Part shown: positions 5,852 through 37,141 of the stretch, in pieces
Layout: each line of letters opens with the position of its first letter
How positions within the stretch are numbered: the stretch's first letter is position 1
Position numbers and translations under genes: made by a program
Assembly: GCA_964016885.1 (NCBI GenBank)
Contig: OZ024741.1
Coordinates: forward strand, 351,726,001 to 351,790,000
Length of the DNA stretch: 64,000 nt
Direction of reading: 5' to 3'
Origin: Eledone cirrhosa
Taxonomy: Eukaryota
Notes under the pieces: model-generated
Told to the model about the DNA's origin: nothing
Database searches by the model: none
Seen by the model: only the letters and a program-made list of their open reading frames with translations

Positions 5852-7502
5852 GTAAACCCCTATAGTTAGCTTAGCTTAGCTTAGCTTAGCTTTTGTCGAC
5901 TTGGAGAAAGCCTTCGACAGAGTCCCCCGTTCCATTATCTGGTGGGCTCTTAGAAAACTAGGTGTTGATGAATGGCTTGTGAGAGCTATACAAGCCATGT
6001 ATAAAGAAACAGTCAGCAAGGTTAGAATTAACAACGAATATAGTGAAGAATTTAGCGTAAAAGTTGGTGTTCATCAGGGCTCTGTTCTTAGCCCCCTACT
6101 ATTTATTATTGCCCTTCAGGCTATAACAGTGGAGTTCAAGACCGGCTGCCCATGGGAACTCCTATACGCAGATGATCTAACGCTCATAGCTGAATCAATG
6201 GCCGAGCTAGAGAAGAAATTCCAAACATGGAAGCACGGCCTAGAATCAAAAGGCCTTAAAATTAACCTGGCTAAGACTAAAGTTCTAGTTTGTAGGAAAG
6301 AAAATAAGGCGGCGGTCCCTTCTGGGAAATGGCCATGCTCAGTGTGTAGGAAAGGCGTAGGTAGAAACTGCATTTTATGTCCCAAATGCAAAGTATGGGT
6401 GCATAAAAGATGTAGTGGGATCACAGGTAAGCTAACTAAGAACATAGATTTTTACATGTGGCCGGTGCTCTGGTGCAATAAGTAGCAGCAAGTGCCAACA
6501 AAATACTAGCTCTTTCAATTGCGCAGAGGGTTCTATAGAAATAGTGGACAGCTTCCGTTACCTGGGTGACAAAATCAACAGTGGGGGAGGGTGCTCTGAA
6601 AGTACAGTAACTAGAGTCAGAACTGGATGGAAAAAGTTCAGAGAGCTTATACCACTATTAGCCGCTAAAGGGTTCTCCCTAAAAATGAAAGGCAGGCTGT
6701 ATGATGCCTGCATACGAACAGCAATGTTGCATGGCAGTGAGACCTGGGCATTGTGTGCAGAGGATATACGCAGACTAGAGAGGAACGAAGCTTGCATGCT
6801 CTGCTGGATGTGTAATAGTAATATACGCGAACGGCAAAGCATAAACGAACTAAGGGAAAAATTAGAAATAAGAGGGATCAGATGTTGTTTACTCGAGAGA
6901 AGGCTACGTTGGTATGGTCACGTGATGCGCATGAAAGACGACAGCTGTATAAAAAAGTGCAGGGCAATAAAGATAGACGGTAGCAACGGAGTAGGCAGAC
7001 CCAGAAAAACCTGGGACGACCTGATAAATTCCGACCTCACACACTTACACCTCTCCAAGACAATGTCACTGGACCGAGATCTTTGGCGGTACTCAGTAAT
7101 AGAGAAGACCCACCTTACCTGAATACAAAGTAAAACCTACTACAGTCAGTAGGCATCTCTAACAAAATACACCCCCGTCCCACCATCCCCACCCCATCCA
7201 CACCGCCCCTTTCAATGTAAAGTTATGTTGGTGCCACAACATCCAGGCCGAAACAAATGAGATCGTGTAGGTGTCACGGCAAAAAAACACACAGTCCACG
7301 CTGTAATGTGGCCGTGTAGGCAACATGGTAAAAACCTCCCAGTCCCATGCTGTAAATGTGGTTGGTGTTAGGAAGGGCATCCAGCTGTAGAAAACCCGCC
7401 AGACAGTCCTATGCGAGCAAGACAACCACTCTTGCCTCAAGTGGGAAAACTCCCGTCCAAACCCATGCAAGCGTGGAACATGGACGTTAAACGATGATGA
7501 TT
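5852..7502 (+). mobile_element. RTE-clade LINE, 5'-truncated inside RT, frameshifted, inserted into an R4/Dong remnant
   Basis: ORFs 5901-6485 and 6544-7122 match the family. ATTGT occurs on both sides (short TSD or microhomology), and the interrupted R4 sequence resumes at ~7501. Confidence 0.92.
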
Positions 7503-8575: not shown

Positions 8576-9515
8576 TCTCAGAATTTACATATAATATAAT
8601 GTAAGTTGAGCAATCCTTTTCACAACCCTTCATAATTTCACATCAATAGATGTGAAATGTAACAGAACAGAATAAGACAGGCAGAGAAACAACTACCATC
8701 TAACAACAATAAAGGTGAAAGTATATTTTTTTTAAATAAAAAAAAATGCAAAAAATAAAACGTTTTTTCTTCTTTAAACACATCATACTTTGAAAACATT
8801 GTCAAGAAAAGGAAATGTTGTTGGGATTTTAAACCATTAAAATATCCATCATTTTGAAAAAGAACATATGCTCTCTCTTTCTGTTTCTCCCACATATGTA
8901 CACATACACATGCATACATACTCTCTCTGAACACAAACAATGCACACATACATGCATAAATGAACATTCATTGCATTCTTGTATGTATGTGAATGCACAC
9001 ACACACATATATAATATATATGCGCGCGCGCGCGTGCGTGTGCGTGTGTGTGTATATATATATATATATAACCTCTGTCTCTTCTACTCACTCTCTAGAT
9101 ATTAACAAATACAACCCTTCATTGCAGTTTATTTTTCTTCCACCTATATTCCATTAGTTTGTCACACACTCTTCTTACCCACCTCCTTATGTCTGATGCT
9201 TTCTGTCACTCACATTTACTGACATACATGTACACACACACAAAGGAACAGACACACCTACATACATACATATTACACCTAGAGAACACATACACATAAA
9301 CACATCCACAAACATTCACACACACAAAGATACATAGATACATACACTCCCAAACACACATATATAGATTAAGATATATAAATATGCACATACATAGATG
9401 CACACAAATACATTAATATACAAGCACACACATATATATATGCACTAACACACACACACACACACATATATATATGCACTAACATACATAAATAGACCAA
9501 AATTTTGTTACATAC

Positions 9516-9592
9516 TTTATCGCTTCCAATCTCTGATCATTTCGAATAAGTTCGATAAATTCTTGTTGGCGGAGTTTAAATTCCAATGTACT
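9516..9592 (-). CDS. MAEA: MAEA internal exon (not in the ORF track)
   Basis: taaaccag|AGT...ATAAA|gtatg. 77 nt encode [25 protein letters not shown] plus 2 nt (MAEA: [25 protein letters not shown]). The phase-2 end matches the start of the next exon. Confidence 0.93.
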
Positions 9593-10356
9593 CTGGTTTA
9601 AGAAAAACAACAACAAACAAATAAAAATTAAGTAACAAACCGGTAACAACAATAACAATTACATTAAACTAAAAAAATATAAAGCATTATAACATTTTGG
9701 TATGGTTTCTACAGCTAAATTATTCCATGATGTTAACTACTTTACACAGAGTACAGGGTGATTTTATTGTAACACCAACAATAGAGAGGTTGCCTTGTCC
9801 TTAGCCAGATTAAAGAGTTTTCTCTATCCTGCATTATCCCCATTCATTTGTCAACTTCTTTACAGAGTGTATCAGATGCTTTTTGTCATGGTACCAACAC
9901 TAAAGAGGTTGTCATGTCCCACAGCAGGATTAAAGAGTCTTCTCCATCCTACATTGTTTCCATTCAATCACCAACCACTTTAAAAGAATAAAACAGAGTG
10001 GAGTGGGGGGTTTAACTCTTTGGGGACCATTGCATTATGGAATAGATGTACATAGGGAGCATTAACCCTTCCAATAGGACATCTTTGAGAAATGTAAGCA
10101 TAGAAATAGGCAAAACCTTTCAAAACTTGACATAAAAAAGGAAAATTGTTAATACAAATTCACTTCAAATAAAAACAAGAAACCTCCTATGAAATGCAAC
10201 ATCATATGAGGTCAGCTAAACCTATATAGGTATAAGCTGTAGTAACAACACTGTGACCCCTATGATTAAAACACCCAAGAAACCTCCAATGTGATGCAAC
10301 CTCGTTGGAAGCCAGCTAAGCCTACGTAGGTGTGAGCTGTAATAACAACAACATGG

Positions 10357-12301: not shown

Positions 12302-12837
12302 CTGACAAATATAGATATACAAAGGATAAATACAAACAATAAGTGTGTGTGTGTATATATATATATATATAAAACATGAGAAGAAAGAAGAATACTGCGT
12401 GGCTTGCACATGGGTTACATATGATAAAAATAGTCCTTCGTCAGTGATTTTCCAACCATCATTGGTATTTCATCGCATTAAAAATCAGATACCTCAGGTT
12501 GGTGCGAGCAATAATCTAAAAAAAGTTATTAGGACCAGTAATCGCGTAAAGCGAGGGGGACAAGTAAACAACATAGAAGGATAAAAACAAACCAAAGAAA
12601 GGAAATAAACAAGCAACATGGTAGTCCTGGTCAGCATAAACTGGGTGGATTTCATGAGCGAAAAGTACAGACGTTCAACCTGAGTGTATATATATACATA
12701 TATACATATATATATGTGATGATGATGATGATATATATACATACATATATATATATATATACGTACATATATATATACATATACATATATATATACATAT
12801 ATACATACATATATATATACATATATATATATATACA

Positions 12838-15541
12838 CACCTCATAGTCAGGACGAGACGTACTAGACAGCAGAAGAGGACTATCCTCAGGAGAAAAATA
12901 TGGAAACTAAAGGATCCCACAGCCAGAAATAAATTTAAAAGCATATTACTTGATGCTTTCGACAGTAAGGAAGAGCAATTAGAGTCGTACAATATAGAGG
13001 AACAGTGGGAATTCCTGAAAGCAAACCTGCTGATGGCGGCAGACGAAGTCTGTGGCTGGAGCAGGCCTGTAGGCAGGAGGAGAGTAACATGGTGGTGGAA
13101 CAGTAAGGTGGAGGAGTCAACTAAGGCCAAAAAGCAGGCTTAGAAAGTATGGCGGGATGGGGGAAGTAGAGAAGACTATCAAGTGGCCAGGAGGGAAGCT
13201 AGGAGACAAGTGTACTTCGCAAGAAGGGAAGCAGAGGAAAGAAAGTTCAAGCATGTTCTACAACGCGAGCACCAAAAACGTGAGGTGTTCAGGATTGCTA
13301 GGCAATGTGTCAAGAAAAACCGTGATATTGTCGGGGAGAAGTGTGTACTTAATGATGATGGCGTACTTGCCATCATTGACGCTGATAAGAAGGTAGCTTG
13401 GAAGTGTCACTACGAAAGGCTACTAAATGAGGAGAATAAATGGGAGAAAGACAGTCTCCCCCACATCGACCCAATAGAGGGACCAGCAGTGTTAGTCGAA
13501 GGTAGTATAATAAGTAAGGCAATCAAAGATATGAAAACGGGTAAGGCGGCTGGGCCTTCGGAAATAGTTGCTGAGATGCTGAAAGCCTCTGGAACGGTGG
13601 GACACACCATGGTCACCCGGATAGTAAACCAAGTCATACAGAATGGGGTTGTTCTGAAGGACTGGCGTAGCAGCATCATCGTTAACTGTTACAAGGGTAA
13701 AGGAGACGCCCTAGATAGGAGTAACTATAGAGGCATTAAATTAATCGACCAGGTCATGAAGGTCACGGAAAAAGTAATAGCGCAACTAATCAAAGAGAGA
13801 ATTGATCTAGATGAAATGCAGTTTGGGTTTGTGTCAGGCAAAAGTACCACAGACGCTCTTTTCATTGTACGACAACTACAGGAGAAGTACCTAGCTAAAA
13901 GTAAACCCCTATACTTAGCCTTTGTCGACTTGGAGAAAGCATTCGACAGAGTCCCCCGTTCCATTATCTGGTGGGCTCTTAGAAAACTAGGTGTTGATGA
14001 ATGGCTTGTGAGAGCTATACAAGCCATGTATAAAGAAACAGTCAGCAAGGTTAGAATTAACAACGAATATAGTGAAGAGTTTAGCGTAAAAGTGGGTGTT
14101 CATCAGGGCTCTGTTCTTAGCCCCCTACTATTTATTATTGCACTTCAGGCTATAACAGTGGAGTTCAAGACCGGCTGCCCATGGGAACTCCTATACGCAG
14201 ATGATCTAACGCTCATAGCTGAATCAATGGCCGAGCTAGAGGAGAAATTCCAAACATGGAAGCACGGCCTAGAATCAAAAGGCCTTAAAATTAACCTGGC
14301 TAAGACTAAAGTTCTAGTTTGTAGGAAAGAAAATAAGGCACCGGTCCCTTCCGGGAAATGGCCATGCTCAGTGTGTAGGCAAGGCGCAGGTAGAAACTGC
14401 ATTTTATGTTCCAAATGCAAAGTATGGGTGCATAAAAGATGTAGTGGGATCACAGGTAAGCTAACTAAGAACATAGATTTTACATGTGGCCGGTGCTCTG
14501 GTGCAATAAATAGCAGCAAGTGCCAACAAAATACTAGCTCTTTCAATTGCGCAGAGGGTTCTATAGAAATAGTGGACAGCTTCCGTTACCTGGGTGACAA
14601 AATCAGCAGTGGGGGAGAGTGCTCTGAAAGTACAGTAGCTAGAGTCAGAACTGGATGGAAAAAGTTCAGAGAGCTTATACCACTATTAGCCGCTAAAGGG
14701 TTCTCCCTAAAAATGAAAGGCAGGCTGTATGATGCCTGCATACGAACAGCAATGTTGCATGGCAGTGAGACCTGGGCATTGTGTGCAGAGGATATACGCA
14801 GACTAGAGAGGAACGAAGCTTGCATGCTCCGCTGGATGTGTAATAGTAATATACGTGAACGGCAAAGCATAAACGAACTAAGGGAAAAATTAGAAATAAG
14901 AGGGATCAGATGTTGTTTACTCGAGAGAAGGCTACATTGGTATGGTCACGTGATGCGCATGAAAGACGACAGCTGTATAAAAAAGTGCAGGGCAATAAAG
15001 ATAGACGGTAGCCACGGAGTAGGCAGACCCAGAATAACCTGGGACGACCTGATAAATTCCGACCTCACACACACCTCTCCAAGACAATGTCACTGGACCG
15101 AGATCTTTGGCGGTACTCAGTAATAGAGAAGACCCGCCTTACCTAAATACAAAGTAAAACCTACTACAGTAAGTAGGCATCTCTAACAAAATACACCCCC
15201 GTCCCACCACCCCCACCCCATCCAGACCGCCCCTTTCAATGTAAAGTTATGTTGGTGCCACAACATCCAGGCCGAAACAAATGAGATCGTGTAGGTCTCA
15301 CGACAAAAAAACACACAGTCCACGCTGTAATGTGGCCGTGTAGGCAACACGGTAAAAACCTCCCAGTCCCACGCTGTAAATGTGGTTGGTGTTAGGAAGG
15401 GCATCCAGCTGCAGAAAACCGCCAGACAGTCCTATTCGAGCAAGACAACCACTCTTGCCTCAAGTGGGAAAACTCCCGTCCAAACCCATGCAAGCGTGGT
15501 ACATGGACGTTAAACGACGATGATGATGATGATGATGATGA
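12838..15541 (+). mobile_element. RTE-clade LINE, same family, 5'-truncated, with a stop at 13141 and a small deletion near the ORF end
   Basis: 646-aa ORF nearly identical to the 34371 ORF. It has the same 3' UTR and (GAT)n tail and is flanked by TA/TACA microsatellites. Confidence 0.95.
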
Positions 15542-21288: not shown

Positions 21289-22927
21289 AAGATCATCATC
21301 ATCAACGTTTAACGTCCGTGTTCCACGCTTGCATGGGTTTGGACGGGGGTTTTCCCACTTGAGGCAAGAGTGATTGTCTTGCTCGCATAGGACTGTCTGG
21401 CGGGTTTTCTACAGCTGGATGCCCTTCCTAACACCAACCACATTTACAGTGTGGGGCTGGGAGGTTTTTACCGTGTTGCCTACACGGCCACATTACAGCG
21501 TGGACTGTGTGTTTTTTTGTCGTGACACCTACACGATCTCATTTGTTTCGGCCTGGATGTTGTGGCACCAACATAACTTTACATTGAAAGGGGCGGTGTG
21601 GATGGGGTGGGGGGTGGGGGTGGGACGGGGGTGTATTTTGTTAGAGATGCCTACTGACTGTAGTAGGTTTTACTTTGTATTTAGGTAAGGCGGGTCTTCT
21701 CTATTACTGAGTACCGCCAAAGGTCTCGGTCCAGTGACATTGTCTTGGAGAGGTGTAAGTGTGTGAGGTCGGAATTTATCAGCTCGTCCCAGGTTTTTCT
21801 GGGTCTGCCTACTCCGTAGCTACCGTCTATCTTTATTGCCCTGCACTTTGTTATACAGCTGTCGCCTTTCATGCGCATCATGTGACCATAACAACGTAGC
21901 CTTCTCTCGAGTAAACAACATCTGATCCCTCTTATTTCTAATTTTTTCCTTAGTTCGCTTATGCTTTGCCGTTCACGTATGTTACTATTACACATCCAGC
22001 GGAGCATGCAAGCTTCGTTCCTCTCTAGTCTGCGTATATCCTCTGCACACAATGCCCAGGTCTCACTGCCATGCAACATTGCTGTTCGTATGCAGGCATC
22101 ATACAACCTGCCTTTCATTTTTAGGGAGAACCCTTTAGTGGCTAATAGTGGTATAAGCTCTCTGAACTTTTTCCATCCAGTTCTGACTCTAGCTACTGTA
22201 CTTTTAGAGCACCCTCCCCCACTGCTGATTTTGTCACCCAGGTAACGGAAGCTGTCCACTATTTCTATAGAACCCTCTGCGCAATTGAAAGAGCTAGTAT
22301 TTTGTTGGCACTTGCTGCTACTTATTGCACCAGAGCACCGGCCACATGTAAAATCTATGTTCTTAGTTAGCTTACCTGTGATCCCACAACAATGTTTTAT
22401 GCACCCATACTTTGCATTTGGGACATAAAATGGAGTTTCTACCTACGCCTTTCCTACACACTGAGTATGGCCATTTCCCGGAAGGGACCGGCGCCTTATT
22501 TTCTTTCCTACAAACTAGAACTTTTGTCTTAGCCAGGTTAATTTTAAGGCCTTTTGATTCTAGGCCGTGCTTCCATGTTTGGAATTTCTTCTCTAGCTCG
22601 GCCATTGATTCAGCTATGAGCGTTAGATCATCTGCGTATAGGAGTTCCCATGGGCAGCCGGTCTTGAACTCCACTGTTATAGCCTGAAGGGCAATAATAA
22701 ATAGTAGGGGGCTAAGAACAGAGCCCTGATGAACACCAACTTTTACACTAAACTCTTCACTATATTCGTTGTTAATTCTAACCTTGCTGACTGTTTCTTT
22801 ATACATGGCTTGTATAGCTCTCACAAGCCATTCATCAACACCTAGTTTTCTAAGAGCCCACCAGATAATGGAACGGGGGACTCTGTCGAAGGCTTTCTCC
22901 AAGTCAACAAAAGCTAAGTATAGGGGC
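21289..22927 (-). mobile_element. RTE-clade LINE, 5'-truncated, minus strand
   Basis: ORFs 22372-22998 and 21681-22259 match the family. There is an (ATC)n tail at ~21295, and CAAGAT on both flanks. Confidence 0.92.
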
Positions 22928-23349
22928 AAGATATATATATATATATCCTGGAGAGGGATAGGCTCCGCCAGGCATATAAAATGCCCCAGAAATGACATAT
23001 GCCACTATGGCACCCCTACGACTCCATCAGGGGTTATGGGACCATACCATATATATGAAAAAGAGAAAGAAAGGAAAGAGGAAGAGATTGACAATATTAG
23101 GTGCCAGAAAACTCTGGACACAGACTTAGACTCCAGCCCTTCCTAAGCTAATCAACACTGAAAGCACCATTGTTTCCCCTTCAACATGATAGCCACCACA
23201 TCACTGAGAGTCACTACCACATTCTGTGTTTTGTAATGAGGAGATAGAGAGTGAAACCACTGTAACAAGGAAAATGATGATGATGATGAGAAAATAAGGA
23301 AAGAACTGAAAACAGAATGAGGCAGCGGATGAGAAAGATTCTGTCCTAC

Positions 23350-23553
23350 CTCAATATGGGAGTGTTTGGCCAACCGGAGTGCTGCATTGTAGTAACCAGC
23401 TCTCAAGAAGTACTCTACTAACATGCGGTCAAGGCGCGTTTTCTTCCATAATGACACAGCACTGGATTGATTGCTGTCATATTCCTTCAGGTGGTCCACT
23501 CGGCGTTTGGTCATCTGAGCAGCTTCCAATTCATCATTTATACTTTCATCAGC
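23350..23553 (-). CDS. MAEA: MAEA (macrophage erythroblast attacher / GID9, CTLH complex) internal exon, LisH region
   Basis: ttttcag|GCT...GAG|gtagga. 204 nt encode ADESINDELEAAQMTKRRVDHLKEYDSNQSSAVSLWKKTRLDRMLVEYFLRAGYYNAALRLAKHSHIE, which matches vertebrate MAEA (..KRRIEHLKEH..W.R.R.DRM.VEHLLRCGYYNTA.KLA..S.IE) as recalled. Phase 0-0. Confidence 0.95.
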
Positions 23554-24159
23554 CTGAAAGAGAACAAGAAAAAAAAAATATATATATATATATAACACAG
23601 AGCGCTCTTTTTTCTTTATTTCTTCTATGGAAACCCTTGACACTGTATATATATATATATCAGTAATTTGAACTCTTGCCTAATTAGGTCAGCGTGACCA
23701 TATGCTGACCTTGTAACACAAAGATGTTCGGGGGGGGGGGGGGGGGGGTAGTCTCAAACTGACACCAGTTAGTTTTGAGAGACTGGCCAACTAGAGATTC
23801 TTTTGAGATAACATTTTGAGGTAACAAAAGCTGCCCCCAGTCAATAGCACAGAGATCCTACAGATCAGCTAAGATGTAGTGGTCAACTGTCTCATACTGA
23901 GAACCCTTTAGGTCTCTCTCCCCCTTTTTCTCTCTTTGCTTTTCTCTCTCTCTCTCTTGGTCCTTCTCACTGCCAGGCCAACGAAATTCATAGCATTAAC
24001 AGAAGTTTGGTAAATATATATATGTATTGTGAGTACACACAACAATGAAATCAACACAACACACCGTCAACCTATCTTATCCCATCATCTAACACTCTAT
24101 ATATGGAGCTGCTGTATATATATATATATAAAATTCAAAGGGTATATATATATATAAAA

Positions 24160-24499: not shown

Positions 24500-24790
24500 T
24501 GTGTGAATGAAGTAATTCCATCGGAAAAGTCCAGGAAAAAAGAGTGCTCTATGTATGCAACAGAGCTTAATTATTATTATTATGTAATAAACAACATAAG
24601 GCAATTATTCCATTTACCAGTGGTTTCTTAAAAGCAAAAGGTTTTGCTTTCAATCCTCAGAATGGGAAAAAGCTGGTTTTAGAAAACCAGCTTTTTCCCG
24701 TTCTGAGGATTGAAAGCAAAACCTTTTGCTTTTAAGAAACCACTGGTAAATGGAATAATTGCCTTATGTTGTTTATTACATAATAATAAT
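24500..24790. repeat. (TA)n-flanked foldback element (family B); relatives at 1-150 and 42260-42422
   Basis: ~110-bp near-perfect arms centred at ~24680, plus a one-sided extension AGAGTGCTCTATGTA..CAGAGC shared by the relatives. Confidence 0.85.
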
Positions 24791-25362: not shown

Positions 25363-25548
25363 ATATATATATATATATAGATATATATAGATATATATAT
25401 ATATATTTAAAGGTTAAACAAGGTTCGATGAATAAATCAAAGAATTAGTTTTACAATAGATTGGAAGCACTCAACAAAAAGGTTTTCTGGAGTTATTAAT
25501 ATTCATTTAAAATATTAACAAAAATAGAACTTCATTGTGATCAAGTAT

Positions 25549-25613
25549 ATTTTATTATACATATTTCAGAGGTACTGAGCTAACTTCAACAGTATGTCCT
25601 CATCAGATAAAAT
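25549..25613 (-). ncRNA. Type-I hammerhead ribozyme candidate
   Basis: ATTTTAT-CTGATGA-GGA(CATACTG..CAGTACC)TCT-GAAA-TATGTA-TA-ATAAAAT; 7-bp stem I. Confidence 0.55.
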
Positions 25614-25699
25614 AAGATGATGCATGACATACCCTGACATAGTAGATGGTTAAGATCCAGTCATGGATCTTAACCATCTACTATGGTGAGACCATCTAC

Positions 25700-28190: not shown

Positions 28191-29820
28191 TTAAGGGGTA
28201 GTGATAAGTTGCTGTGCTAAGGGTGGAGTAAATGCTTGTGATAAGGGTATTGGTAAGGGTTAGTTATAAGAGGTTGTGAATAATGTAGTTAGAGAGATTT
28301 TGTTGGCATTAAAAAACTTTCATCATCATCAACACAATCATCAAGATCACCTTAATCAACACCACCACCATCAACATAAACTACAATCATCATCACCAGC
28401 ATCATCATCAACAACATAAACCACTATCATCAACAACATAAACCACTATCATCAACAACATAAACCACCATCATCAACATCACTTTCATCGTCAACAACA
28501 CAACCACAATCATCAACAACATAACCACAATCATCATCGTCATCAACAACATCACCATCATTAACAACACAACCACAATCATCATCATCATTATTGATAC
28601 AATTAAAATTATGAAGTATGGGTAGGGTGAGGTGAGGATAGAAACAGTTTTAAAGATTTTGTTGGCATTAAAAAATATCATCATCACTGTAATGACCACC
28701 ACCACCACCACCATCACGACTAACAACACCACAACCACCATGATCAACATCACCATCATTATCATCACTATCATAACCACCATCACCACCACCACCACCA
28801 CCACAACCACTATCATTAGCATCACCCTCATCAACACCACCACCACCACTATCATACCACCATCATCCATATCACTACGACTACCACCATTATAATAATT
28901 GTTATTATTAACATTATTTATTTGTTGGCGTTGTTACTGTTGTTACTGTTTTCTAGTTGTATGACTTTTTATGATATATGTTCCTAGAAAAAGAGAGAGA
29001 GGGGGGGGTTGTAGTGTTGAGGCAAATGTAGCTAGGGCAAAAACAAGGGGATAGAGAGGGAGGGTGTAGTGAGAGGGTGAGTTTAGTGAGAGGCAGAGTG
29101 AAGAGAAAGGGGCTCTTGATGGAGTGGTTTGTAGAGAGGTGGTATGGATGGGGGTGTAGAGAAGGGTGTAGATGGGGATGTAGAGAGAGGGTACAGAGGA
29201 TTGTAGAGGGGGTGTAGAGGGGGTGTAGAGGGGTGGGAGTATCAAAAGAAGGGGTGCCCTTGAGAAAATTTAATCTATAGTTTATGGTTGAACCAATGAA
29301 AAAATACCCATATTATTATTATTACAAAGAGTGGAGATGGGGAGAGATCTAATATTAAGTGTATGACTCATAAATATTTCAAACATTTTTACAGGTGGGG
29401 GGGGGGGGGGGGTAAAGTGACGGGTGGGTGGTATTAACGAAGGGGCTATGTGTTGGTTGTGTTTTAAGCACTAGGCAAATAAATGAGCCAGCAAGCAGAC
29501 ACACACACACAACTGGGCATGATATACACAACCTAAGCAGACTTATAGACAGAAGTATGCGTGTGTAGGTAGTAGAACAAAAAAAACACACACATACATA
29601 TATTACATACACACATACAGATTTGCAGATATAATTCCCAATGCTTGATCTAAACTCTGATCATATGTGAGGCATTATATATATATATATATAATTGGTG
29701 TGGGATGCTTAAAGCGTCCGTATGCGGTAGGCCGTTTGAGCACTCGATGCTCTCACAGAGCAGAGTATAATATTACATAAGAAACGGAGAATCAGTGGTG
29801 CGATGAATTAAAATTTATTA

Positions 29821-29915
29821 GACATATTACAATCGTTTCTCTGGCGACCAGCTCGAGGCACAATCGATGCGATGATTGAACCTGACTCTGAAATCGCCAG
29901 ATCCTCAGATAGGTC
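29821..29915 (-). ncRNA. Type-I hammerhead ribozyme candidate with long stem II
   Basis: GACCTAT-CTGAGGA-TCTGGCGA...TCGCCAGA-GAAAC-GATT-GTA-ATATGTC. Perfect 8-bp base of stem II, GUA site, stem I 6 of 7 paired. Confidence 0.7.
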
Positions 29916-29938
29916 TTGATCTTTCGAAGCAGAGTTTC

Positions 29939-29981
<43 letters not shown>

Positions 29982-32699: not shown

Positions 32700-33650
32700 A
32701 TGTTGCAATGTGACTGTTTAAGGGGATTTGTTGTGTGTTTTCATCATCATCTTGTTTCTATAGTTTAAAAGCTTACGTGTCGACATCGTGATAAAAAAGG
32801 CTTCAGAGACACCTAAAAGGCAAGACTTTTTGTTTGCATTATAGGCTTATGCATAACCAATAATTTTCTATTGAAGGTTGTAATTGGTTTTTGACATATT
32901 GAGATCAGCAACACATCAAGCTAATGAGGTAGAATAGCTAAGGTTATCATTTTTAAAGGAATGTAGATGGGAGAAATATCAGGTCTTAAATGAGTTAGCT
33001 TTATCGCCTATATAAAAGTTGGCCAAGTTAGGTATGTTAACTCTGCACTTATACATTAGATTTTATCTAAGGCAACACCCATTTAAAGGACAGTTGCTAA
33101 GTGCTCTACAATTACATTTTAGGTTAGAGGTAGAATTTACACTGGAGGAAGAATGAGATCTATTACTAACAGTTGTATAGTTATGGTCATGTATAGTACA
33201 ATTTAATTGATTATGGCTATTTGAATTGTTAATACTATGCTGATTACCTACAATATTGTTAATAGTGTTGCTAGAAATATGATGCTTAGAAAGTTTACGT
33301 GGTTGCTGAAGGTAAAATAGTCAGCTAAGCAGGGTGTTGTTGGGAAGGATAACTTTACAGTATTCTTGTTAATTAATTTACAGTATTTATGGCCTCATGG
33401 AAAATTTCTTTCCAGAATATTGAAGAAGATTTTAAGGATATTCGTGGCTACATTTAGTTCATGGGTGAGTTAAACCATGAAATTATACGTTTTCGACTTT
33501 TAGGTGAATAAGATGATTTATCCCCAAGTATGTTTTGAGAATCATGCACAACTGGATTAGAAAGTATTTGGTTAAGTTTACCATCCATGAAACCATGCTC
33601 GGTTAAAGTTTGCTTTTGGAATTTTAAATGAGGTTTAGGATTAATACTGT
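32700..33650 (-). mobile_element. Penelope-like element remnant (linker plus C-terminal GIY-YIG endonuclease)
   Basis: RKRIISWFNSP..NVATNILKIFFNILERNFP*GHKYCKLINKNTVKLSF...CNCRALSNCPLNGCCL..NLMYKCRV..NFYIG..ANSFKT.Y.SH..SF, typical of WFNPP-type PLEs. Confidence 0.75.
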
Positions 33651-34027: not shown

Positions 34028-34255
34028 ATATATTTTTTATTGAGTATCGACCATTACATATGTTTCCCAGATAACTTGAGGTCTATATCGATGTGATAGA
34101 CCTGATTTCAGTATCAATCTGTTCATCAGGCATGTTGGTTCAACTAAAAACAGAATCATGTCTATCACATCGATATAGACCTCAAGCTAGTCATCTGGGA
34201 AACATACATAATGATCGATATTCAATAAAAACATTATAAAGTAAAACTTCATTAT
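34028..34255. repeat. Foldback element (family H) containing a hammerhead core
   Basis: TTTATTGAGTATCGACCATTA..CTTGAGGTCTATATCGATGTGATAGAC / GTCTATCACATCGATATAGACCTCAAG..TAATGATCGATATTCAATAAA. Confidence 0.8.
34050..34136 (-). ncRNA. Hammerhead ribozyme candidate with long stem II (stem I imperfect)
   Basis: CATGC-CTGATGA-ACAGAT...ATCTGG-GAAAC-ATAT-GTA-ATGG; lies within a foldback element. Confidence 0.5.
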
Positions 34256-34377
34256 AACACACACACACACATATATATATATAGGTGTGTGTGTGTGTGT
34301 GTGTGAATATACATATATATAAATACAAATAAGCCAGGTAGATTATATCCTTACCAGAAGATGTGACAGAGTGTCTG

Positions 34378-37141
34378 TTGTAAACACTAAATCCCTCCCC
34401 CATGAAGAATGCACCTCCCAACATAGACTGATAATTAGCGACCTCATAGTCAGGACGAGACGTACTCGACAGCAGAAGAGGACTATCCTCAGGAGAAAAA
34501 TATGGAAGCTAAAGGACCCCACAGCCAGAAATAAATTTCAAAGCATATTACTTGATGCTTTCGACAGTAAGGAAGAACATTTAGAGTCGGACAATATAGA
34601 GGGACAGTGGGAATTTCTGAAAGCAAACCTGCTGTTGGCGACAGACGAAGTCTGTGGCTGGAGCAGGCCTGTAGGCAGGAGGAGAGTAACATGGTGGTGG
34701 AACAGTAAGGTGGAGGGGTCAATTAAGGCCAAAAAGCAGGCTTGGAAAGTATGGCGGGATGGGGGAAGTAGAGTAGACTATCAAGTGGCCAGGAGGGAAG
34801 CTAGGAGACAAGTGTACTTAGCAAGAAGGGAAGCTGAGGAAAGAAAGTTCAAGCATGTTCTACAACGCGATGACCAAAAACGTGAGGTGTTCAGGATTGC
34901 TAGGCAATGCGTCAAAGAAAACCGTGATATTGTCGGGGAGAAGTGTGTACTTAACAATGATGGCATACTTGCCATCACCGACGCTGATAAGAAGGTAGCT
35001 TGGAAGTGTCACTATGAAAGGCTAATAAATGAGGAGAATAAATGGGAGAAAGACAGTCTCCCCCATATCGACCCAATAGAGGGACCAGCAGTGTTAGTCG
35101 AGGGGAGTATAATAAGTAAGGCAATCAAGGATATGAAGACGGGTAAGGCGGCTGGGCCTTCGGAAATAGTTGCTGAGATGCTGAAGGCATCTGGCACGGT
35201 GGGACACACCATGGTCACCCGGATAGTAAACCAAGTCATACAGAATGGGGTTGTTCCGAAGGACTGGCATAGCAGCATCATCGTTAACTGTTATAAGGGT
35301 AAAGGAGACGCCCTAGATAGGAGTAACTATAGAGGCATTAAATTAATCGACCAGGTCATGAAGGTCACGGAAAAAGTAATAGCGCAACTAATCAGAGAGA
35401 GAATTGACCTAGATGAAATGCAGTTCAGGTTTGTGTCAGGCAAAAGTACCACAGACGCTCTTTTCATAGTACGACAACTACAGGAGAAGTACCTAGCTAA
35501 AGGTAAACCCCCCTACTTAGCTTTTGTCGACTTGGAGAAAGCCTTCGACAGAGTCCCCCGCTCCATTATCTGGTGGGCTCTTAGAAAACTAGGCGTTGAC
35601 GAATGGCTTGTGAGGGCTATACAAGCCATGTATAAAGAAACAGTCAGCAAGGTTAGAATTAACAACGAATATAGTGAAGAGTTTAGCGTAAAAGTTGGCG
35701 TCCATCAGGGCTCTGTTCTCAGCCCCCTACTATTTATTATTGCCCTTCAGGCTATAACAGAGGAGTTCAAGACAGGCTGCCCATGGGAACTCCTATACGC
35801 AGACGACCTGACACTCATAGCGGAATCAATGGCCGAGCTAGAGAAGAAATTCCAAACATGGAAGCACGGCCTAGAATCAAAAGGACTTAAAATTAACCTG
35901 GCTAAGACCAAAGTTCTAGTTTGTAGGAAAGAAAACAAGGCGGCGGTCCCTTCTGGGAAATGGTCGTGCTCGGTGTGTAGGAAAGGTGTAGGTAGAAACT
36001 CCATTTTATGTCCTAAATGCAACGTATGGGTGCATAAAAGATGTAGTGGGATCACAGGTAAGCTAACTAAGAACATAGATTTTACATGTGGCCGGTGTTC
36101 TGGTGCAATAAGTAGCAGCAAGTGCCCACAAAATACTAGCTCTTTCAATTGCCCAGAGGGTTCTATAGAAATAGTGGACAGCTTCCGTTACCTGGGCGAT
36201 AAAATCAGCAGTGGGGGAGGGTGCTCTGAAAGTACAGTAGCTAGAGTCAGAACTGATTGGAAAAAGTTCAGAGAGCTTATACCACTATTAGCTGCTAAAG
36301 GGTTCTCCCTAAAAATGAAAGGCAGGTTGTATGATGCCTGCATACGAACAGCAATGTTGCATGGCAGTGAGACCTGGGCATTGTGTGCAGAGGATATACG
36401 CAGACTAGAGAGGAACGAAGCTTGCATGCTCCGCTGGATGTGTAACAGTAATATACGTGAATGGCAAAGCATAAACGAACTAAGGAAAAAATTAGAGATA
36501 AGAGGGATCAGATGTTGTTTACTCGAGAGAAGGCTACGTTGGTATGGACACGTGATGCGCATGAAAGTCGATAGCTGTATAACAAAGTGCAGGGCAATAA
36601 AGATAGACGGTAGCCATGGAATAGGCAGACCTAGAAAAACCTGGGACGAGCTGATAAACTCCGACCTCACACACTTACACCTCTCCAAGACAATGTCACT
36701 GGACCGAGACCTTTGGCGGTACTCAGTAACAGAGAAGACCCGCCTTACCTAAATATATAGTAAAACCTACTCCAGCCAGTAGGCATCTCTAACAAAATAC
36801 ACCCCGTCCCACCCCCACCCCATCCACACCACCCCGTTCTATGTAAAGTTATGTTGGTGCCGCGCCATCCAGGCCGAAACAAATGAGATCGTGTAGGTGT
36901 CACGACAAAAAAACACACAGTCCACGCTGTAATGTGGCCGTGTAGGCAACACGGTAAAAACCTCCCAGACCCACACTGTAAATGTGGTTGGTGTTAGGAA
37001 GGGCATCCAACTGTAGAAAACCTGCCAGACAGTCCTATGCGAGCAAGACAATCACTCTTGCCTCAAGTGGGACTACCCCCGTCCAAACCCATGCAAGTGT
37101 GGAACACGGACGTTAAACGTTGATGATGAAGATGATGATGA
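34378..37141 (+). mobile_element. RTE-clade LINE, 5'-truncated, with an uninterrupted 793-aa reading frame (end of APE, RT, PHD-like finger, C-terminus), 3' UTR and (GAT)n tail
   Basis: ORF 34371-36752 contains QHRLIISDL (APE end), TWWWN, NYRGIKL, AFVDLEKAFDRVPR, GVHQGSVLSPLLF, YADDL and RRLRWYGHVMR. The 3' UTR has the GGTTGGTGTTAGGAAGGGCATCC core and a GAT tail. Confidence 0.95.

Follow-up and report, generated by a model that had tools for sequence, protein, structure and literature searches.

Penelope-like elements (PLEs) of the Hydra clade are described as having DKT and RW(K/R) motifs, a CxCX5C linker, CxxC and CxH around E and N and no CCHH motif, and as inserting into (TA)n targets with an inverted truncated partner, a tail and a canonical hammerhead near the 3' end, and all of these traits are shared by the element reported here (PMC8557442). 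The formation of PLE inverted repeats and tails is presented in the same source as an open problem. The hammerheads of PLEs are of type I, lie in the pseudo-LTR (pLTR), have a small palindromic helix III suited to dimers and occur mostly solo or as opposite-strand pairs from truncated PLEs, as at the present locus, and their helix II is also large, being larger than usual at 7-8 bp (PMC4209133). The initial annotation of this DNA, which took PLE and retrozyme hammerheads to have usually a short stem II, was half right on this point. In vitro, the PLE protein of Anolis cuts and extends both strands of AT-rich DNA, and its reverse transcriptase (RT) starts at two internal sites that define the tail; insertion is independent of hammerhead cleavage, and the protein is predicted to be a dimer (PMC11167929).

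Here, we analysed a 250-bp unit with a hammerhead in a 64,000-nucleotide stretch of Eledone cirrhosa DNA (the window). Judged from its continuity with coding copies elsewhere in the genome, the 250 bp is not an independent family and can be identified as the 5'-truncated pLTR end of a ~4.9-kb Hydra-clade PLE.

Parent element and genomic copies

Minus-strand positions are numbered from 29945 (A1), so that An is window position 29946-n. The features of the unit and its ends are as follows.

29695..29943 (A3-A251), minus strand: solo 5'-truncated pseudo-LTR end, 84% identical to one pLTR of the long copy L088 and 80% to the other
29944..29977, no strand: (TA)n target tract at the element's 5' end, from the sequence
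29676..29694, no strand: (TA)n target tract at the element's 3' end; its first 4 bases show microhomology to the sequence with which the element itself runs on towards the ORF
29766..29773 (A173-A180), minus strand: first fixed 3' end, candidate RT start site 1, from end mapping blurred by TA microhomology
29695..29769, minus strand: tail of ~75 nt between the fixed 3' ends, from end mapping
29695, minus strand: candidate RT start site 2, at the tail end, which in long copies lies 43 nt before the ORF ATG
29935..29943, minus strand: 5' wall of truncated arms and putative transcript start (+1 = 29943), from 5'-end mapping
29911..29916, minus strand: DPE-like motif at +28 to +33 (fits RGWYVT) in the majority sequence, overlapping the stem I 5' strand; putative function

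Upstream of the 250 bp, long copies contain about 2 kb of non-coding sequence and, before it, the end of a GIY-YIG domain, a CxCX5C linker and an RT, and the 250 bp is continuous with the ORF in L079, L081-L086 and L088-L091. In L082, L084, L085 and L088 the tail recurs 43 nt before the ATG, and therefore the 250 bp represents a pseudo-LTR end. The order in long copies is pLTR, 43 nt, ATG, RT, CxCX5C linker, GIY-YIG, a 3' region of ~2 kb and pLTR, which gives a unit of 4883 bp in L088. Natural copies have a single ORF with the RT followed by a C-terminal GIY-YIG domain, and none of the 13 long copies examined has it unbroken. Sister families at 65% and 55% identity have open frames of 861 and 894 codons, respectively, and the sister Hydra ORFs at L175:983-3556 and L178:999-3674 are open over 858 and 892 codons.

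Using Pfam, the GIY-YIG domain was found just below the cut-off of 22.6 bits (21.8-22.1 bits, E = 2e-4), and the RT in the element ORF was unrecognised. By its motifs the element belongs to the Hydra clade, as compared by eye with the rows of Fig. S7 in PMC8557442: DKT and RWR are present in L080 and L082 and RWK in the sister L178, and L084, L089 and the sister ORFs have the CxCX5C linker and CxxC and CxH around E and N, with CCHH absent. A Naiad PLE (N-terminal GIY-YIG, DKA, no canonical hammerhead) was rejected because the endonuclease here is C-terminal. Homologue searches returned one protein for the RT fragment and 38 for a sister ORF, and the nearest named proteins to the latter are from Argonauta hians (42%), which would fit an octopod-like host. 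ORF continuity, the Hydra motifs and the covarying 62-nt arm described below bear out the earlier proposal of a PLE-derived unit with an atypical, extended stem II.

The family is abundant and moderately diverged. A 36-mer from the hammerhead motif has 946 exact matches in the genome, compared with 0 for its reversed control, and the best 40 full-length matches, the window's own aside, are 92-95% identical. In a set of 70 distinct copies (copies not covering A30-A130 and identical copies were left out), all 12 core positions are kept in 52, so the core is conserved among genomic copies, a point on which the first assignment of the hammerhead had been made to depend. The window copy differs from the majority at 8 of 249 positions (3.2%), 5 of these being CpG transitions, and across the family mismatch at CpG positions is 2.7 times that elsewhere (9.6% vs 3.6%). 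The description of the unit as young and retaining many CpGs therefore needs adjusting: CpGs are present but decaying, and with 3.2% divergence in the window copy and broken ORFs in every long copy examined, the family is only moderately young.

Insertion ends and a proposed mechanism

We mapped 95 insertions: the tail by itself served to select 28 of them, and the other 67 were taken as matches to the 36-mer in their order on the first contig; the loci thus came from ranked matches and the first contig and not from a random draw, and 5 of 100 loci were left out (the window itself, three insertions seen twice and one duplicated flank). Copies of the family end at one of two fixed 3' positions with ~75 nt between them, and this intervening tail opens with a hairpin (29767-29741) that is kept in the sister families. 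A head-to-head partner arm is present in 59 of the 95 insertions, and the other 36 are single-armed like the window copy. In 55 of the 59 two-armed insertions, unlike ends are joined, one at A251 and one at A176; like-ended pairs were not found (0/59), and one end is eroded in the remaining four. In the sister at 65% amino-acid identity, 13 of 14 partner arms share an end to within 1 nt, at a site that precedes the other end by 103 nt. The two-armed insertions L066, L063, L098 and L118 have arms from internal ORF or 3' regions, and therefore the head-to-head join is not limited to the pLTR.

The 5' ends of the arms pile up at one site. Among 34 pattern-anchored arms that reach A12, 22 stop in A1-A12, mostly from A3 on, and among arms not tied to the anchor 22 of 29 do so, compared with about 7.5% expected from the downstream rate. 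This pile-up lies 35 nt upstream of the hammerhead core, off the cleavage site. The cut site itself is not enriched in 5' ends (A117-A122 holds 4 of the 72 at risk, and the figure for the sister family is 2 of 35), and hammerhead cleavage was rejected on this ground as their origin. For the sister family, a wall was predicted beforehand at an initiator-like site, and 10 of 20 tail-picked arms stop within -4..+14, with 1 of the other 10 stopping in the next 163 nt (the query's own locus, 1/30, was left out of the count). The wall was weaker in a core-picked sister sample, in which 5 of 40 arms stop in -4..+20 and 35 run more than 70 nt upstream.

From these DNA ends we infer that the wall is the transcript start of an internal Pol II promoter at 29943. 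With A3 as +1, the majority sequence has, in addition to the DPE-like motif, four of the five bases of CGANC at +18 to +22 (both consensus sequences are from PMC5580651). The DPE match was noticed after the wall had been found, and its chance at a fixed site is about 0.6-2%; the sister family matches at 4 of 5 positions. The initiator match at 29943 is weak, and no cap-derived extra G was seen at the wall by inspection.

We consider it probable that the 250 bp is the pseudo-LTR 3' end of a ~4.9-kb Hydra-clade PLE inserted in (TA)n, likely made when the enzyme began copying inside the 5' pseudo-LTR of the RNA and ran off the RNA 5' end. In the mechanism we propose, for which the insertion anatomy agrees with what the Anolis element does in vitro (PMC11167929), the internal Pol II promoter in the 5' pLTR would start the RNA at 29943, the protein would bind near the tail and the ORF start, and its GIY-YIG domain would nick both (TA)n strands. 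The RT, probably as a dimer, would prime one strand at each of the two start sites, cDNAs reaching the RNA 5' end would give arms of ~175 and ~250 nt, and the two cDNAs would be joined head to head, or one would be lost as in the single-armed window copy. For long copies to form, the template would have to offer a start site at the 3' pLTR or be a tandem read-through. A full-length RNA would carry two hammerhead copies 4.9 kb apart. With its self-complementary loop on a stem III of 2 bp, the hammerhead likely needs a partner; it would probably cut poorly alone, requiring either a partner engaged through the near-palindromic loop III or the protein, and the templates behind these insertions would have been mostly uncut.

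Short copies far outnumber long ones in crude first-look counts (3651 candidates for the 250 bp, against 603 for the 257 bp that follow and 592 for the RT), and promoter-like motifs lie inside the unit, both of which would fit a self-propagating SINE-like element in which a solo copy would be equipped with a promoter, a hammerhead and the two start sites, be transcribed and be copied in trans by Hydra enzymes. We regard such an element as unlikely. By inspection, the subfamily variants of short copies also occur in copies that cross the wall or carry the ORF, and no subfamily private to short copies was seen; moreover, the Anolis RNA must extend past the start sites into the ORF (PMC11167929), which is absent from solo copies.

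The wall might instead mark a point on a longer RNA at which the RT is strongly stopped or the RNA end is processed (structure, splice acceptor), since about a third of the arms (12 of 34) pass it and continue for hundreds of bases, the start is read from DNA ends only, and the intron of D. virilis Penelope ends beside helix I (PMC4209133). We hold this to be distinctly improbable: an AG acceptor is absent at the wall, where long copies read GGAC and then ATT, the wall recurs at the initiator-like site of the sister although the sequence there is unrelated, and both arms stop at the same place in several insertions (L107, L124, L140, L208 and L214).

A non-LTR retrozyme, in which tandem hammerhead repeats are cut to monomers, circularise and reinsert, would share the type I hammerhead, the size of ~250 nt, the lack of coding sequence and the high copy number, and retrozymes are reported to derive from PLE pLTRs (10.64898/2026.07.22.740005). 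With no head-to-tail tandem among the 95 insertions (one same-strand neighbour lies 141 nt away across TA), ends off the cut site and a family that has an ORF contiguous with the unit, this origin is largely ruled out and has very little probability left. The initial annotation had raised a retrozyme-like or separate non-coding family, and this part of it falls, given the lack of tandems and a unit that runs into an RT/GIY-YIG ORF. Of the tandem copies or autonomous PLE partner that it proposed to look for in the genome, tandems are absent from the 95 insertions, and RT/GIY-YIG copies of the parent element were found, with broken ORFs in the 13 long copies examined. For copying that began inside the 5' pLTR, the fixed 250-bp size likely marks the stretch from the RNA start to the point where the RT started copying.

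The hammerhead and its stem II arm

An intact type I hammerhead was recognised at 29915-29821 on the minus strand, between the (TA)n tracts, by sequence inspection and folding, and its parts are as follows.

29915-29909 (A31-37), minus strand: stem I 5' strand, from the sequence
29908-29902 (A38-44), minus strand: core CUGAGGA, from the sequence
29901-29840 (A45-106), minus strand: stem II arm of 62 nt, from sequence, folding and covariation
29900-29894/29847-29841, minus strand: predicted basal helix with unpaired flanking bases, from folding and alignment
29890-29888/29851-29849, minus strand: predicted second helix, from folding and alignment
29885-29880/29859-29853, minus strand: predicted third helix, from folding and alignment
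29878-29874/29865-29861, minus strand: predicted fourth helix with an 8-nt apical loop, from folding and alignment
29839-29835 (A107-111), minus strand: GAAAC, followed by the 4-nt loop III
29839-29828, minus strand: GAAA, 2-bp stem III, near-palindromic loop and GUA triplet, with the cut predicted after 29828 (A118)
29827-29821 (A119-125), minus strand: stem I 3' strand, from the sequence

The core, the GUA triplet, stem I and stem II on the minus strand between TA tracts are thus where they had been reported, and the conserved core and three stems of a type I hammerhead are all present, with stems that covary. A strict type I descriptor has 3 matches in the window, compared with 0 in 100 block shuffles, the whole motif folds with z = -2.1 (6 of 200 shuffles are equally good), and the self-duplex of loop III is predicted at -5.8 kcal/mol. 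Rfam, which had been suggested as a check, gave nothing at the gathering score for the window hammerhead, and none of the 27 matches obtained at a relaxed E = 10 is from a hammerhead family. The G10.1-C11.1 pair beside the core is absent; the flanking bases, the first stem II 'pair' 29901/29840, are unpaired in 12 of 16 family representatives and are followed by an invariant C-G. Two details of the earlier description hold for the window copy more than for the family. The perfect 8-bp base of stem II exists here and is not a family trait: of 70 other copies, 69 have T and 1 has A at 29898, so that with G in none of them the family has a mismatch there (two further arms outside that set carry G). 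Stem I, read as GACCUAU/AUAUGUC, exists with 6 of 7 pairs and one C-U mismatch, caused by a C at 29912 that is nearly private to the window copy (1 of 70 copies); the majority base gives 7 pairs.

On the evidence of the alignment, the arm is a genuine domain of several helices, undetected by Rfam. It folds as a single long interrupted hairpin at -28.4 kcal/mol, with no kink-turn seen by inspection. Using 16 natural copies from about nine subfamilies and sister families, we found two-sided changes at 11 of 30 tested arm pairs and pairing in 86% of cells, compared with 28-40% for slid partners, and none of 500 shuffles reaches the observed covariation score, although relatedness inflates such scores and the tested structure was derived from the same 16 sequences. 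RNAalifold recovers the arm unaided, with a two-sided change in 8 of 18 pairs. Changes on both sides that keep pairing occur at 3 of the 6 paired positions of the basal helix beyond the first, at one more, and in the upper helices. It is scarcely credible that the arm has no structure under selection, as would hold for a neutral insertion or a small retained intron, even with many arm pairs invariant or changed on one side only and kinship inflating covariation, since pairing is kept through two-sided changes far more often than for slid partners, RNAalifold finds the arm and, as regards the intron, which was rejected, no precise GT-AG deletion is seen in 40 copies with a shortened arm. About half of those 40 copies lack the same 12 nt between two GATC repeats, a deletion that removes the apical hairpin and is likely due to slippage. 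It appears that some structural role, not necessarily cleavage, keeps the arm in place.

Across the lineage the core varies (CUGAGGA, CUGAAGA, CCGAGGA, CCGACGA, CUGAAAGA and CCGUCGA). CCGUCGA is the core in 95 of the 100 matches listed, of 326 in all, in a young sister family with 96-98% identity among its top matches; this family (65% amino-acid identity; L183:1500-1770) shares the long arm, has a GUC site and a loop III that is fully palindromic, and its two 3' ends are separated by 103 nt. In L165, L166, L168 and L169 (for example L166:6163-6272), a sister core with an extra base after A6 (CUGAAAGA) was observed with the arm kept, and in the hammerhead of the L178 family stem II spans 26 nt. 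Hammerhead activity in vitro is reduced by U4C, by changes at A6 and by an insertion after that base (PMC3088659); the A6U change itself is absent from the passages of that paper used here. Cores altered in this way with the arm kept are therefore either weak natural variants or a sign that cleavage is dispensable in those families, and sister families that keep the arm while changing the core offer a natural series for what PLE hammerheads do. More tentatively, and with the odds against it, the hammerhead may be a scaffold more than a cutter: selection would hold the 62-nt arm while the core drifts, the first strand of stem I would double as a downstream promoter element, and every insertion would be built by an RT-endonuclease dimer that primes the two TA strands at two different positions on one capped RNA. 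If so, the genome would hold thousands of read-outs of PLE transcript starts, and the same copies would read out the unexplained inverted-repeat-plus-tail structure.

The window contains other hammerheads and coding sequences. At 34050..34136 on the minus strand, a related but older family contributes another long-armed hammerhead, which forms one arm of a head-to-head pair. It had been noted as an unrelated example; it does exist, and it shares arm motifs and the tail hairpin with the present family and is therefore an older, distant relative. In a model search of the window this site scored 19.8 bits (E = 0.02, rough), and other copies of its family reach 37 bits (E about 1e-6). Head-to-head type I hammerheads with an 11-bp stem II (26-nt span) lie between TA tracts at 24602-24761 and represent another PLE end family, and a type I hammerhead with a 32-nt stem II span is found at 25544-25619 on the minus strand, with similar ends in L013 and L167. 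A broken Hydra-type endonuclease fragment of another family occupies 32742-33463 on the minus strand (tblastn E 1e-11 to 1e-16). A LINE-type RT reading frame, which we take to be RTE-like, is present in several copies, at 5880-7119, 12658-15120, 21684-23004 and 34323-36749. Two minus-strand coding exons at ~23350-23554 and ~9500-9600 resemble a CTLH-complex subunit, MAEA-like, for which Pfam gave no support. No further upstream exon of this host gene was found within the window; if one lies beyond 29945, the hammerhead would be intronic and in sense orientation.

Comparison with known systems

Metazoan non-LTR retrozymes are like the present unit in their type I hammerhead, size range and link to PLEs; they are tandem non-coding repeats giving circles, whereas here we have a dispersed end fragment of a coding element (PMC7229834; 10.64898/2026.07.22.740005). 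PLE-X1 of spike mosses reaches about 50 nt in its stem/loop II and is flagged in File S2 of PMC8557442 as departing from the canonical structure, and therefore arm length alone has a precedent. It differs in being an EN-minus plant element of unrelated sequence, for which File S2 reports no multi-helix covariation. Compared with the PLE hammerheads of PMC4209133, ours has a four-helix arm, a first stem II pair that is C-G instead of G10.1-C11.1, and an unpaired base on both sides.

Within the Hydra clade, an unpaired base on each side of stem II is also found in 19 of 26 Hydra rows of File S2, in which no more than 26 nt separate the core halves (PMC8557442). Here 62 nt separate them, which makes the arm more than double the length of those in published relatives. 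Published units are, in descriptive terms, generally below 3 kb, whereas the present unit is ~4.9 kb (PMC8557442), and the tail, published as 30-40 nt, is ~75 nt here and 103 nt in the sister. The hammerhead sequence also differs from that of Hydra-1_Obim. PMC8557442 was the sole match in the literature for octopus, hammerhead ribozyme and Penelope together. We found no description of the arm, the end-pairing rule or the wall in the openly searchable literature, and the family may be catalogued in Repbase or Dfam.

Poseidon PAc of Anolis carolinensis is alike in its two RT start sites, its AT-rich target and the extension of both strands (PMC11167929). It belongs to a different clade, both start sites lie upstream of the ATG only in the element reported here, and one-of-each end pairing and a 5' wall are not among the features described in the parts of that account used here. 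In conclusion, the element class and its hammerhead were already known, and the long covarying arm is the new part. In addition, one-of-each end pairing together with the 5' wall provides a countable genomic test of how PLE inverted repeats and tails are formed.
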